A stretch of DNA of 64,000 bases from Escherichia coli (GTDB taxonomy: Bacteria; Pseudomonadota; Gammaproteobacteria; Enterobacterales; Enterobacteriaceae). The notes beneath the pieces were generated by a model. That model ran no database searches and was not told the origin of the DNA. It saw only the letters and a program-made list of their open reading frames with translations. The stretch lies in NCBI RefSeq assembly GCF_044324875.1, contig NZ_CP172185.1; one strand, 5' to 3'. Numbering within the stretch: position 1 is the first letter of the stretch; each line of letters begins with the position of its first letter. This document shows, one piece after another, positions 28,143 to 49,572 of the stretch. Position numbers and translations under genes: made by a program.

Positions 28143-28950
28143 CTGTACATAGATTTATGTAATTGCCTGATTTTGATATGTTCAATTCAACATCAAATGA
28201 AAGCTAAATTATGGACGACACACAATTGCAGGCTCTGGCTAACGAACTGGCCAAAAATCTCAAAACCCCTGAAGATCTCAGTCAGTTCGATCGCCTGCTC
28301 AAGAAAATAAGTGTTGAGGCAGCTCTCAACGCTGAACTGACTCACCATCTGGGACATGAAAAAAATCAGACCAAATCGGGAACCAACTTCCGTAATGGCT
28401 ATTCCACGAAAACCGTCACCACTACCGACGGGCCGATGGAATTACGTACTCCACCTGATCGTGATGGTTCCTTCGAACCACAACTGGTGAAGAAAAATCA
28501 GACCCGCATTACCGGCATGGACAACCAGATCCTGGCGCTGTATGCCAGAGGGATGACTACCCGCGAAATTACCTCAGCCTTCAAAGAAATGTACGACGCC
28601 GATGTCTCGCCCACGCTGATATCCAAAGTGACCGATGCGGTTAAAGAACAGGTCTCTGAATGGCAAAACCGACCGTTGGATGCACTGTATCCCATTGTTT
28701 ATCTTGACTGTATTGTGGTTAAGGTTCGTCACAGCGGGAGTGTCATTAACAAAGCGGTGTTCCTCGCGCTGGGAATCAATACCGACGGTCAGAAAGAGCT
28801 GCTGGATATGTGGCTGGCCGAAAATGAAGGTGCAAAGTTCTGGCTGAATGTACTGACGGAACTGAAAAATCGCGGCCTGAACGATATCCTTATCGCCTTC
28901 GTGGACGGCCTGAAAGGCTTCCCGGAAGCGATTAATGCCGTCTATCCCAT
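28143..28950 (+). mobile_element. IS256-family element copy 1, 3'-truncated
   Basis: Terminus CCTGTACATAGATTTATGTAATTGCC; transposase ORF from 28211; about 445 bp identical to copy 2; abutted by an IS200 fragment. Confidence 0.7.
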
Positions 28951-29310
28951 AAAGCCGGATACGCTCATTTTGGGCGGGATCTCCACAAGCATATGGATAT
29001 GATCTGCACAGCACTCAGCTTCAAGAATCCGTACACTTTTCCACTCACACAGCTTTCTCAAAATAATGCCTGTTGCTTTACGCTTCTCTCTGTAGAACAC
29101 TTTTCTTCGGTATTTTGGCGCAAAAACTATGTGATATTTACAGTTCCATCGGGTATGCGCTAAGCTCTTTTCGTTCCCCATTGGGACCCCCTTTTGATTT
29201 CTTGTTTGACACTTGCAGTTGCCAGACCGCAAGGTGTTTTAACAAATCAAAAGGGGTTTTAATAACTGGCTCAAAGCTGAAAGCTTTCCGGCCCCCAGCC
29301 TAGCTGGGGG
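28940..29310 (-). mobile_element. IS200 fragment (tnpA N-terminal part plus 5' hairpin region)
   Basis: ORF 28942..29232 contains MGNEKSLAHTRWNCKYHIVFAPKYRRKVFY…HIHMLVEIPPK; hairpin CCCCCAGC/GCTGGGGG near 29290. Confidence 0.65.
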
Positions 29311-30417
29311 TTTTCTGTGCACAAAAATCCGGAAACGAGTGAGCGTTTCAGGATTCTTAAACAGACCCTGGATCGGTCAACTGCTCCTAAACTGATCGGC
29401 ATTACACCTGTCGGCTGCCGTTTTTTCAGCTCCGTGATCCATGGGCCGGGTTCTTTGGTCAGCAATGCTGCCGCCCTTGCCCCATGGATAAATAATGTCC
29501 GGTGGTAGGTATCCCCACGTTTGCTTATCCCCAGCATGCGAACCTTCCCAGCGGACCCCGTCTGCTTCGGCACCAGACAGACATAAGCGTCAAACTCACG
29601 TCCGGATTTAAATGCTGAGGCCTCGCCCATGGTGGCGACCACCGCCGTAGCGATTAACGGCCCCACACCGGGGATTTCCATTAGGCGCTTACAGTTTTCG
29701 CTCTGCCGTGCCACGCTGTTAATCTGTTTATCAAGGCCATCTATCTGCATGCCCAGCTCACTCAGTCTGTTGTACTGGTATTCAAGCACAGTGATGAGAT
29801 ACGGCGGCAGGTTCGTCTTCATTCGCTCTAGGGCTGTCGGTAGCTTTCTGTCCATCGCTGTCCGATCTTTGTGGAGGATTTCACCAAACTCGAGGAGCGT
29901 GCCAAGGGTATTAATATGCGAGGTTCTGAACTTCACCAGTTGTCTGCGCGAACGGTGCAGGACCAGAACTGACTGCTTCTCTTCCGTTTTAACAGCGATA
30001 TCTTTACTGGGCTGCTGTACCGCCATCCAGATAGCACGCGCATCCATCACATCATTTTTGTTGCCCATGACGAATGCTTTAACGAAGCGAGCTTGCAACA
30101 GCCGAACTTTGTGTCCCAGTTTTTTCCAGTTCCCTCGCCCAATGTTGGGAGCCTCCACAAGCCTCCATACCTATCAGACAGGGTTCCCGGTTGCTGAAGA
30201 ACGTCAGAAAATCCTTGCTACGTAGCTGCTTGTCCACCACTTCGCCCGTGTACTCATTGATGAAGTGAACCTGAATCAGATACTTTGCGATATCAACGCC
30301 AACCGGTGTATATTTCATTTGTGGAGTCGCCAGTCTGAGGGCGCTTTTGCATCCCGTATTGGGCACTATGATGCCGGAAATCTGAGAGGCTCCACAGCAG
30401 ACAATTTTACCCTTCAT
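29271..30417 (-). pseudogene. IS110-family transposase in two overlapping frames
   Basis: ORF 30079..30417 N-terminal part and ORF 29271..30158 C-terminal part (MEIPGVGPLIA motif). Confidence 0.6.
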
Positions 30418-30556
30418 CCATCACAGTGCACCTCTCTTAACAGGGCAGGATGTGTTCAGTACATTTCTCCTTTTATGGTTACAGTTTATCCATCATGGCG
30501 TAATTGAAGGCTGTCGTGAAGGAGAGGAAGAGCATCTCATCACTTACAAACAAATA

Positions 30557-30579
30557 CATTAATGATAACCATTTGCATT
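30557..30579 (+). promoter_or_regulatory. Fur-box-like sequence upstream of sitA
   Basis: CATTAATGATAACCATTTGCATT resembles GATAATGATAATCATTATC. Confidence 0.45.
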
Positions 30580-47491: not shown

Positions 47492-47534
47492 AAATCTCCA
47501 TCCAGGTTGCGTAAGAGCCACTTTTCATCCGTCG

Positions 47535-48135
47535 TTGACATTTGTATGCCGTCACTGTGGCACTTCTCGGCCCACATTGTGTAAATGGTGGCGCAGATAT
47601 CTGGCTCAGGGCATCGCTGGTCTGGAAAGCTACAGCCGTCGCTCCAAGCGTTCACCATCAACGAAAACCAGCACTTGCGAAGTCGCTCTGATTCTGGAAG
47701 TTACGTTCTCAGCGAAATCTGGGTGCAAGACGTATTCAAAGCGAGTTAAAACGACTTCATTCAATCTCACTGGCAATAGTGCGTATTACCGTTAAGGGGA
47801 TCGGTGAGTAACGGCGTTTTTCAAGGTAGTTGTCGCCTGATGTAATAAAGGTTGGACGTTCCCAAAAGACAGACAAAGCTGAGTTTTACGCTACCGTAGA
47901 TCTTTCTGCTGATGACCTGAAGGAACTGCAGGCAGAATGGCAGCATTACTATAACTGGGAACGTCCTCATAGCGCTCACAACGGTAAAACTCCGATGGAA
48001 CGCTACTTTGAACTTGCTGAGAAAACACCATACTCCGATGCCGTTCATGCAAACTATCAGCCCAATGAAGAGCATATACAGGAACAGAATTACAAGCCTG
48101 AACTTGAACTGAGAAAATTGAAACGATGTCTATGA
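47535..48135 (+). pseudogene. IS481-family-like transposase remnant (N- and C-terminal pieces; catalytic core missing)
   Basis: ORF 47535..47795 HTH (CRHCGTSRPTLCKWWRRYLAQGIAGLES); ORF 47830..48135 C-terminus (…WQHYYNWERPHSAHNGKTPMERY…). Confidence 0.5.
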
Positions 48136-48260
48136 ATCACACATTTTATTACAAGGCAACAACTACCTTCAAGCTCTATGTTGAGCCTGTTTACCATTCT
48201 GTGTAATATGCATTTTCTTTAAAGTGACCGTCAGGACGGTCACTGATTACCCATTCTGAA

Positions 48261-49572
48261 GAGACTGTAATTAAAATTGTGTAATTGCCTGTTTTTGATA
48301 TGTTCACTCCAACAACGGAGACAGGCAAACGATGGACGAAAAGAAACTTAAAGTCCTTGCGGCTGAACTGGCCAAAGGCCTTAAAACCGAAGCCGACCTC
48401 AACCAGTTTTCACGCATGTTGACAAAGCTTACCGTCGAAACGGCGCTCAATGCAGAACTGACTGACCATCTAGGTCATGAGAAAAATGCTCCTAAATCAG
48501 GCTCTAATACCCGTAATGGCTACTCGTCAAAAACGGTATTGTGCGATGATGGCGAGATCGAACTTAACACGCCGCGTGACCGTGAAAATACCTTCGAACC
48601 ACAACTGGTGAAGAAAAATCAGACCCGCATTACCGGCATGGACAACCAGATCCTGGCGCTGTATGCCAGAGGGATGACTACCCGCGAAATTACCTCAGCC
48701 TTCAAAGAAATGTACGACGCCGATGTCTCGCCCACGCTGATATCCAAAGTGACCGATGCGGTTAAAGAACAGGTCTCTGAATGGCAAAACCGACCGTTGG
48801 ATGCACTGTATCCCATTGTTTATCTTGACTGTATTGTGGTTAAGGTTCGTCACAGCGGGAGTGTCATTAACAAAGCGGTGTTCCTCGCGCTGGGCATCAA
48901 TACCGACGGTCAGAAAGAGCTGCTGGATATGTGGCTGGCCGAAAATGAAGGTGCAAAGTTCTGGCTGAATGTACTGACGGAACTGAAAAATCGCGGCCTG
49001 AACGATATCCTTATCGCCTTCGTGGACGGCCTGAAAGGCTTCCCGGAAGCGATAAATAGCGTGTACCCGCAGACGCATATTCAGCTCTGCATCATCCATA
49101 TGGTGCGCAACAGCCTGAAATTCGTGTCGTGGAAGGATTACAAAGCCGTCACCAGCGGGCTGAAAGCGGTATATCAGGCCCCGACAGAGGAAACGGCGTT
49201 GATGGCGTTGGATAAGTTTGCAGGCGTCTGGGATGAAAAATACCCGCAAATCAGCAAGAGCTGGCGCACACACTGGGAAAATCTCAACACCTTCTTCGGT
49301 TACCCACCGGATATCCGCAAGGCCATCTACACGACGAATGCCATCGAATCGCTGAACAGTGTCATTCGGCAGGCGATAAAGAAGCGCAAGGTGTTCCCAA
49401 CGGACGACTCGGTGCGAAAAGTGATTTATCTGGCGATACAGTCGGCGTCAAAAAATGGAGTATGCCAATCCAGAACTGGCGGCTGGCAATGAGCCGTTTT
49501 ATTATCGAGTTCGGTGACCGCCTTAGCGAGCACCTTTAATACGGCGGCAGTTACACAGAATTATTTACAGGG
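48261..49572 (+). mobile_element. IS256-family element copy 2, 1312 bp, flanked by 8-bp direct repeat ATTCTGAA
   Basis: Inverted repeats GAGACTGTAATTAAAATTGTGTAATTGCC and GACCCTGTAAATAATTCTGTGTAACTGCC (reverse complement); repeat at 48253-48260 and 49573-49580. Confidence 0.85.
48332..49538 (+). pseudogene. IS256-family transposase with a C-terminal frameshift in an A-run
   Basis: 386-aa ORF ends …SKNGVCQSRTGGWQ; the -1 frame continues …KKWSMPIQNWRLAMSRFIIEFGDRLSEHL; the shift is at the A6 run near 49455. Confidence 0.75.

Follow-up and report, generated by a model that had tools for sequence, protein, structure and literature searches.

Two insertion sequences (ISs) of the IS256 family, belonging to different IS species, bracket the genes for iron uptake through Sit and aerobactin in a chromosomal island of Escherichia coli and share a nearly identical core. 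We put at about 80% the probability that these elements exchanged sequence by conversion in place and that the module between them was then deleted by homologous recombination across that core. The junction that such a deletion would leave is present in two complete genomes.

Layout of the iron-uptake module

The window, by which we mean the entire stretch of DNA analyzed, comprises 64,000 nt of E. coli (assembly GCF_044324875.1, contig NZ_CP172185.1), with the piece at issue at positions 28,143-49,572. Two IS256-family copies pointing the same way enclose sitABCD and iutA-iucDCBA-shiF (Table 1), and a repeat search of positions 26000-52000 returned a single long-range direct repeat family pair, with a spacing of 20121/20122. 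The locus is chromosomal in all relatives at 99.3-99.7% identity. The RefSeq annotation of the closest of these, locus L001 (99.7% identical), agrees with the sit and aerobactin genes of the window, to which it was transferred with an offset of +14499. The extents given for the genes in a preliminary description of this DNA, sitABCD at 30652-34122 and iutA-iucDCBA-shiF at 36711-46011, match that annotation, and the family matches are consistent with them.

The same description presented the segment as one island between IS copies. The IS256 pair does bracket the module, but the module sits within a far larger mosaic island; the pair does not mark the boundaries of that larger island, and import of the module was not due to it. 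Related island loci end beside kpsF (L012) or a tyrosine integrase/recombinase (L002), and the 64-kb window contains no tRNA gene or integrase. On the right, the true module boundary lies at ~48183 and not at the IS, because the 78 bp that precede the IS are joined directly to 49583 onward in many genomes. The two ISL3-family pseudogenes were considered as alternative repeats that could delete the module and were rejected, as the search of 26000-52000 found no repeat of at least 40 bp between them.

Table 1. Features of the iron-uptake module and its flanking IS256-family elements (window coordinates).
Feature	Position	Strand	Basis
Left IS256-family copy, Z-type, IS1414-related	28139..28948	+	Identity, NF033543, L001 RefSeq
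Left arm of core	28470..28932	+	Ungapped comparison, diagnostic sites
Segment A, Z-type	left: to about 28579; right: 48601-48700	+	Diagnostic sites
Segment B, ISEc39-type	left: about 28597-28777; right: 48718-48898	+	Diagnostic sites
Segment C, Z-type	left: 28819-28932; right: 48940-49053	+	Diagnostic sites
20,121-bp unit absent from natural deletion variants	28933..49053		Junction matches
IS debris between left IS256 copy and sit	28945..30318	-	L001 annotation mapped
IS200/IS605 tnpA fragment	about 28945-29181	-	L001 annotation mapped
IS110-family pseudogene	about 29388-30318	-	L001 annotation mapped
sitABCD iron/manganese ABC transporter	30652..34122	+	ORFs, family models, RefSeq names of L001
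IS1 fragment and ISL3-family pseudogene, between sit and iutA	34501..36647 (+/-1)	+	L001 annotation mapped
Aerobactin receptor and synthesis genes	36711..44745	-	ORFs, L001 RefSeq, family matches
iutA	36711-38912	-	ORF, RefSeq, family match
iucD	38994-40271	-	ORF, RefSeq, family match
iucC	40268-42010	-	ORF, RefSeq, family match
iucB	42010-42957	-	ORF, RefSeq, family match
iucA (longest ORF)	42958-44745	-	ORF, RefSeq, family match
MFS transporter (shiF-like)	44818..46011	+	ORF; RefSeq "MFS transporter" in L001, L013, L014
Second ISL3-family pseudogene	about 46271-47455	+	L001 annotation mapped
IS3-like integrase-core fragment	about 47541-48135	+	L001 annotation mapped
78 bp of neighboring sigma-like/YadA segment	48183..48260		Joined straight to 49583 onward in many genomes
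Left 9-bp target-site duplication of right IS, CATTCTGAA	48252..48260		Direct-repeat search
Right IS256-family copy, ISEc39-like, 1,313 bp, both inverted repeats	48261..49573	+	Identity, inverted repeats, NF033543
Right arm of core	48591..49053	+	Ungapped comparison, diagnostic sites
Right 9-bp target-site duplication of right IS, CATTCTGAA	49574..49582		Direct-repeat search

Two different IS256-family elements

The right copy resembles ISEc39, with 99% identity in its 5' part and 96% in its 3' part (96% overall). It ends in 25-nt terminal inverted repeats of 80% complementarity and is flanked by a perfect 9-bp duplication, CATTCTGAA; many other genomes, for example at locus L006, have the empty site with one copy of this 9-mer. 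This copy represents a simple insertion into the neighboring YadA segment, at a point 78 bp from the segment's edge. Its transposase ORF (48332-49492) matches the NCBIfam IS256 model NF033543 (cut-off, 150 bits) at 418 bits over profile positions 1-336 of 338. Relative to the 402-aa ISEc39 transposase, the ORF is frameshifted after residue 374 because one base is missing from an A7 run, and RefSeq marks the identical copy in L001 as frameshifted. Family model, inverted repeats and target duplication all place this copy in the IS256 family, although an intact reading frame is lacking.

The left copy is 82-84% identical to IS1414 and is referred to here as Z-type. Over its 5' 331 bp it shares 97% identity with an element in NZ_CP159644.1 and 82% with IS1414. 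It retains about 62% of the element, with the left inverted repeat; the 3' end is cut off at ~28948 by an IS200/IS605 tnpA fragment, and the copy has only one of the two ends of an IS256 element, with no right inverted repeat. Its ORF matches NF033543 at 255 bits, over profile positions 1-207 of 338 only, and in L001 RefSeq calls the homologous IS256 transposase incomplete and places an IS200/IS605 fragment after it. Neither copy encodes astA/EAST1, a candidate that was rejected since stops interrupt the IS1414 astA frame in the right copy and the left copy holds only its first few codons before the truncation point.

Reciprocal mosaicism of the two copies

When the copies were compared without gaps at an offset of 20121, they matched over 28470-28773 and again over 28775-28932; with the one differing position between them, 28774, these runs make up a shared core of 463 bp (462/463 identical). 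Exact alignment, far from exposing a much shorter or more diverged core, extended the identical stretch of about 445 bp in the preliminary description, which was right in substance; the ranges listed there (28487-28930 and 48597-49050) were slightly short and unequal in length. In L001 the core is 463/463 identical, with C at the mismatch position in both copies, and the mismatch is thus private to the window strain. Outside the core the two copies are only ~65% identical (216/331 in their 5' parts), and against this background a tract of 463 bp at 99.8% is far beyond chance. The core stops 16 bp short of the left truncation point, a position that fits the truncated copy having been the partner in recombination.

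Both copies were typed at 269 diagnostic sites, at which three Z-type and three ISEc39 references are each uniform and differ from one another. The left copy reads Z-E-Z (E, ISEc39-type) and the right E-Z-E-Z-E, and the boundaries of segments A, B and C are identical in the two copies. The earlier proposal that these are mosaic or gene-converted relatives, not simple duplicates, is borne out by this typing: they are two IS species with exchanged patches. Because both carry a tract that is chimeric for both types, sequence passed in both directions. Exchange was restricted to the most similar stretch, since native Z-type and ISEc39 elements, at 79% identity, are more alike in the core than in the 5' part (66%) or the 3' part (67%).

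The mosaic is confined to this island, and of 5,426 complete E. coli genomes about 54 carry the mosaic. Left flank and left mosaic occur together in 54 genomes, which make up the set at at least 99% identity, and all other matches to the left copy lack the flank. The right mosaic is matched at at least 99% in 65 records, whereas ordinary ISEc39 copies reach about 96%. No unconverted ancestor was found at the left or the right site among the 5,426 genomes. The restriction of the mosaic to this island, together with the exact reciprocity of the patches, suggests that conversion took place in situ.

We propose that the two IS species were first installed around the module in direct orientation, and that gene conversion between them followed, in the stretch where the transposase gene is most conserved. 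The left copy would thereby have gained segment B, an ISEc39-type patch of about 200 bp, and the right copy segments A and C, both of Z-type and about 110 bp long; the outcome would be a 463-bp tract that is the same in both. The exchange could have proceeded through one double-strand-break repair, with filling of a central gap and patchy repair of heteroduplex, or two successive conversions. It is conceivable, though we hold it to be rather doubtful, that one double-strand-break repair between ~79%-identical IS species escaped mismatch-repair rejection, seeded the tract and made a previously stable stretch of the island deletable. Were such a process general, island decay would often begin, more than is appreciated, with conversion between related but diverged ISs, and the sit-aerobactin unit, IutA receptor included, might then be lost repeatedly and its loss favored by selection in some hosts.

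Natural deletion of the module

By the established length requirement, direct repeats of 463 bp are long enough for RecA-type recombination. The core would thereby serve as a substrate for homologous recombination, and a crossover within it would remove 20,121 bp, including sitABCD, iutA, iucABCD and shiF, and leave one hybrid IS. As the crossover may fall anywhere in the core, the interval listed in Table 1 is one of many equivalent delimitations of the unit. The mismatch at 28774 was considered as a marker for placing the crossover and proved uninformative, being private to the window strain.

A synthetic deletion junction of 3,000 bp (27433-28932 joined to 49054-50553) was searched in the 5,426 E. 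coli genomes. One match, unbroken over all 3,000 bp at 99.9%, lies in NZ_CP063492.1 (strain EF5-18-41, ST69); the junction was found again, with an additional IS3, in NZ_CP074701.1 (strain 702/18). In both genomes one hybrid IS256 gene replaces sit and iuc, between sodC and the sigma-like/YadA genes, and the remainder of the island is kept. The hybrid has a Z-type 5' end, then the shared core, then an ISEc39-type 3' end, so that same-orientation repeats and an exact recombinant with a single hybrid copy are both represented. We infer that the deletion depended on RecA. The two genomes differ by only 5 mismatches in 39.5 kb and belong to one lineage, which points to one deletion event; with one event among about 54 carriers, the tract is not highly unstable. 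The right copy is enclosed by a 9-bp duplication of its own, and its insertion site occurs empty in other genomes; the deletion is therefore derived from an older two-copy state.

The preliminary description had considered the repeats sufficient for deletion or circularization of the segment. The deletion is upheld by its junction in two complete genomes, whereas the reciprocal junction (48261-49053 joined to 28933 onward), as expected of a circle, a tandem duplication or a reintegration, was covered by no record in the 5,426 E. coli genomes or 72,556 plasmids. The excised circle was presumably lost.

Alternative explanations

The similarity of the cores could in principle stem from strongly conserved catalytic sequence in IS256 transposases, or from a third element as donor, and not from mutual exchange; the core is indeed the most conserved part of the transposase, at 79% between types against 66-67% in the flanks. 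Yet about 21% of core positions separate reference copies of one type from those of the other, against 0-1/463 for the two copies flanking this module, the tract is chimeric for both types with identical breakpoints in both copies, and no record outside the island context matches either copy at at least 99% in the 5,426 genomes, which together render such an origin very unlikely. The arrangement also recalls a composite transposon, in which the IS pair and its cargo brought sit and aerobactin in as a unit that could move again through IS256 transposase acting at the outer ends. Direct-orientation IS256-family copies do flank the cargo, and both outer inverted repeats have been retained, the left one of the left copy and the right one of the right copy. 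However, the outer 9 bp are unlike (GCCGGCATT at 28130-28138 versus CATTCTGAA at 49574-49582), the right copy carries a duplication of its own, with the empty site known from other genomes, the pair combines different IS species whose ends are 65% identical, the left element lacks its 3' end, and the transposase of the right one is frameshifted. With neither a single outer target duplication nor the same IS twice with a working transposase, this reading is largely refuted, and we give it almost no credence.

If, in place of a deletion, the single hybrid IS of EF5-18-41 and 702/18 were ancestral and a sit-iuc circle had entered it by homologous recombination, the two-copy state would be derived; integration and excision are mechanistically reciprocal, and the junctions would be the same. 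This order of events is very improbable in our view, given that the flanks of the right copy are contiguous in many IS-free genomes and carry a perfect 9-bp duplication here, which fits simple transposition and not a circle-chromosome junction, that the hybrid IS lacks matching flanking repeats, and that the circle junction is absent from the genomes and plasmids searched. Repeats can also collapse during assembly, and the deletion junction was identified in assemblies, so that the apparent deletion might be a collapsed 463-bp repeat in two genomes. Such an artefact is highly unlikely: the junction is common to two complete assemblies from different laboratories and countries, these differ by an IS3 insertion beside the junction as well as by 5 mismatches, and a 463-bp repeat is short relative to long reads.

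Comparison with known systems

Direct IS repeats bracket iron-acquisition segments in the Yersinia pestis pgm locus, which lies between IS100 copies, and on pColV-K30, where aerobactin lies between IS1 copies; both segments are lost by recombination between the repeats. The module described here is alike in that homologous recombination deletes the segment and leaves one IS. In those systems, however, the repeats are copies of one IS, whereas here two IS species became partners only after conversion had made the 463-bp tract. ISEc39 and IS1414 are the IS256-family relatives of the window copies, both of which differ in carrying foreign patches. In the literature we found no description of ISEc39, or of a sit-aerobactin arrangement of this type with IS256.

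With GI-pheV and related tRNA-associated E. coli islands, the locus shares an iron-uptake module among IS remnants in a large island. GI-pheV modules, including a shiF_iucABCD_iutA module, are "flanked by insertion sequences" and gained or lost by recombination (PMC11537424); unlike in GI-pheV, sit lies directly beside aerobactin here and the module is without sat or pap. The same cargo, iucABCD-iutA-shiF and sitABCD, occurs on chromosomal islands rich in partial transposases (PMC7545054), but there iuc and sit are on separate islands at other sites, whereas here they are 2.6 kb apart and deleted together.

Aerobactin and sit are also neighbors in the ColV/ColBM virulence region (e.g. pAPEC-O1-ColBM), to which the aerobactin segment is 97-99% identical. 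The order on these plasmids is iutA-iucDCBA-shiF-crcB-sitDCBA; in the window, by contrast, sitABCD lies beyond iutA, at the opposite end of the aerobactin genes, and its orientation relative to them is reversed, with no crcB between, and the locus does not show the plasmid gene order on an IncF plasmid. No plasmid in PLSDB covers at least 80% of 28000-50000, the best coverage being 58%. One plasmid match (H8) that apparently started at the left IS was rejected, as it consisted of non-collinear pieces and an IS1414 with astA.

Iron-uptake genes and consequences of their loss

Few iron systems are tied as strongly to the extra-intestinal virulence of E. coli as aerobactin and Sit (PMC10282060), and ST69 and ST457 strains from poultry and people carry this island family (PMC8350485, PMC10100771). 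Both systems can be lost in a single step, and at least one circulating lineage has lost both, which bears on how the presence or absence of virulence genes is read in surveillance. The instability is of an ordinary, well-understood type and leaves the understanding of such islands unchanged. It also illustrates cleanly, in nature, how different IS species can first convert one another and the new homology can then support a deletion.

At the protein level, SitB matches NF011630 at 584 bits, and SitA, SitC and SitD match metal ABC families. A frameshift in iucD had been suspected from a RefSeq flag on L001 and is ruled out for the window, where the ORF encodes an IucD of 425 aa whose length and C-terminus equal those of plasmid IucD annotated as intact.

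A repeated core in two IS256-family elements

A repeat search of 26000-52000 returned one pair of long-range direct repeats, spaced by 20121/20122, and ungapped comparison at offset 20121 gave matching runs at 28470-28773 and 28775-28932. The core common to both copies measures 463 bp with a single mismatch, the left arm corresponding to 48591-49053 on the right; the direct IS256 repeats that the preliminary description placed around the iron module (sitABCD plus iutA-iucDCBA-shiF) are thus borne out, its core coordinates being near right if slightly short. As the closest relative locus (99.7% identical) has C at the mismatched position in both copies, the mismatch is private to the window strain. 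Beyond the core, the two elements align with only ~65% identity.

Features of the repeat-flanked segment and of the region to its right
Feature	Position	Description
Left element	28139-28948	left end matching; ends near 28948 at IS200/IS605 fragment
Between elements, 1st		IS200/IS605 fragment and IS110 pseudogene
Between elements, 2nd		sitABCD
Between elements, 3rd		IS1 fragment and ISL3 pseudogene
Between elements, 4th		iutA-iucDCBA and MFS (shiF-like) gene
Between elements, 5th		second ISL3 pseudogene and IS3-like fragment
Right element	48261-49573	25-nt terminal inverted repeats; perfect 9-bp flanking repeat CATTCTGAA
Collagen-repeat ORF	53284-54780	
IS66 element	54844-57459	
IS21 istA/istB	58382-60800	
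Lambda J-like tail-tip protein	60871-63873	

ORFs of both copies pass the NCBIfam IS256 model. Neither yields an intact enzyme, since the left copy is truncated and the right transposase follows the 402-aa ISEc39 protein only as far as residue 374, where collinearity ends because an A7 run lacks one A. Over its first 102 bp (28139-28240), the left copy also matches a short relic in K-12 MG1655 (1987489-1987590) at 95%. Some form of match to the left copy is present in 4,093 of 5,426 genomes, and the 102-bp relic turns up across the matches sampled, which suggests an ancient IS256-family remnant of the core genome.

Exchange between two IS types

We aligned both copies with three Z-type references (IS1414-related, 82-84% identical) and three ISEc39 references, and typed them at 269 diagnostic sites at which each reference set is internally uniform and the sets differ from each other. 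The left copy is Z-type over 28142-28579, ISEc39-type from 28597 to ~28777, and Z-type over the remainder, from 28819 on. The right copy starts as ISEc39-type (to 48475), turns Z-type at 48601-48700, reverts to ISEc39-type at 48718-48898, is Z-type once more at 48940-49053, and finishes as ISEc39-type. This site-by-site typing establishes the core as a chimera of three segments (A, B, and C) whose breakpoints coincide in the two copies. Segment B of the left copy was acquired from the ISEc39 type, and A and C of the right copy from the Z type. The copies had been described as mosaic or gene-converted relatives, and two IS species with exchanged patches are what the typing supports.

The Z type and ISEc39 share 66% native identity in the 5' part, rising to 79% in the core and falling back to 67% in the 3' part; the exchange was limited to the most similar stretch of the two types. 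The left-copy truncation point lies 16 bp past the core end. The left flank with the left copy is found in 54 genomes (the set matching at at least 99%) and the right mosaic, at the same threshold, in 65 records, ordinary ISEc39 copies being ~96% identical; both mosaics are confined to the island. An in-place exchange between the two copies fits its position at the most similar stretch, the proximity of core end and truncation, and the island-restricted mosaics, and we infer gene conversion between two resident copies from these sequence patterns. No unconverted copy was found at the left or right IS site. For the pathway itself we infer either one break-repair event, in which a central gap would be filled from the right copy and the flanking heteroduplex repaired patchily, or two successive conversions in opposite directions.

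As the right mosaic is seen in ~65 records versus only 54 genomes for the left flank and copy, island variants with the right copy and without the left may exist in some genomes.

Loss of the iron module

A synthetic deletion junction (27433-28932 joined to 49054-50553) is matched at 99.9% by a single 3,000-bp stretch of NZ_CP063492.1 (EF5-18-41, chicken, Laos), and again in NZ_CP074701.1 (702/18, human, Germany) with an extra IS3 present. Deletion of the iron segment between the repeats, as had been predicted, therefore has its junction in two genomes. Both retain the remainder of the island and carry one hybrid IS256 gene, flanked by sodC and the sigma-like/YadA genes; the hybrid is Z-type at its 5' end, followed by the core and an ISEc39-type 3' end. 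The two loci differ by 5 mismatches in 39.5 kb and so descend from a single event within one lineage. None of the 5,426 genomes or 72,556 plasmids contains the reciprocal junction expected of a circle, a tandem duplication, or a reintegration. The deletion lineage also lacks ~4.5 kb (15984-20474) that is present in the window and its closest relative and carries part of an IbrB-like gene and a whole PAPS-reductase (IbrA-like) gene, which marks a further loss within this island, independent of the first.

Many genomes have 48183-48260 running straight into 49583 onward with a single copy of CATTCTGAA, an empty site indicating that the right IS inserted simply, 78 bp into the YadA segment, and made its own target duplication. 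On this duplication and empty site, together with the hybrid's lack of matching flanks, the two-copy state is older than the hybrid. The same evidence rules out that the unit moved as a composite transposon.

Loss of IS-flanked iron loci is classical, as for the pgm locus of Yersinia, which lies between copies of IS100. There both flanks belong to one IS, whereas here they come from two distinct IS species; the distinctive detail would be that these became recombinogenic through bidirectional conversion, for which we found no description in the literature searched.

Island context

Over 27000-51000, the chromosomes of 49 of the 5,426 complete E. coli genomes match the window at 99.3-99.7% identity, and many of these strains come from poultry; no plasmid was found covering 80% of the region. 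In annotated relatives it is part of a large island of mosaic make-up that carries IS66, IS3, IS21, a group II intron, sodC, a YadA-like adhesin, and yee-type genes, ending near kpsF or an integrase. ST69 and ST457 strains are among the island carriers (PMC8350485, PMC10100771), and chromosomal sit and aerobactin genes are well known (PMC10282060). ColV/ColBM plasmid loci have the order iutA-iucDCBA-shiF-crcB-sitDCBA, whereas in the window sit lies on the other side of iutA, so the arrangement is not a simple plasmid fragment. With respect to the aerobactin genes, sit is also oriented differently (30652-46011) than on these plasmids, so the chromosomal module was assembled separately or rearranged.

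RefSeq flags iucD (38994-40271) as frameshifted in the near-identical relative (24440-25773 of that locus). A defect was rejected: the ORF is complete at 425 aa and has the same C-terminus as plasmid IucD annotated as intact. The flag is probably an annotation-model length issue.

Relative to the closest relative and both deletion loci, 25268-26035 is a 768-bp insertion with a 167-aa ORF (25517-26020), and its flanking alignments overlap by 9 bp; it resembles an IS1 insertion private to this strain that made a 9-bp target duplication. Over 52773-64000, rightward of the YadA-like gene, the window diverges from related islands, and the right arm of the island looks replaced or rearranged beside prophage tail genes. 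The YadA-like adhesin gene itself (50373-51968) has 99-bp tandem repeats at 50941-51138 plus a pair of 106-bp repeats, and is the part of the locus that varies most between strains (98.9% identity to the closest relative, with 15 gap openings).
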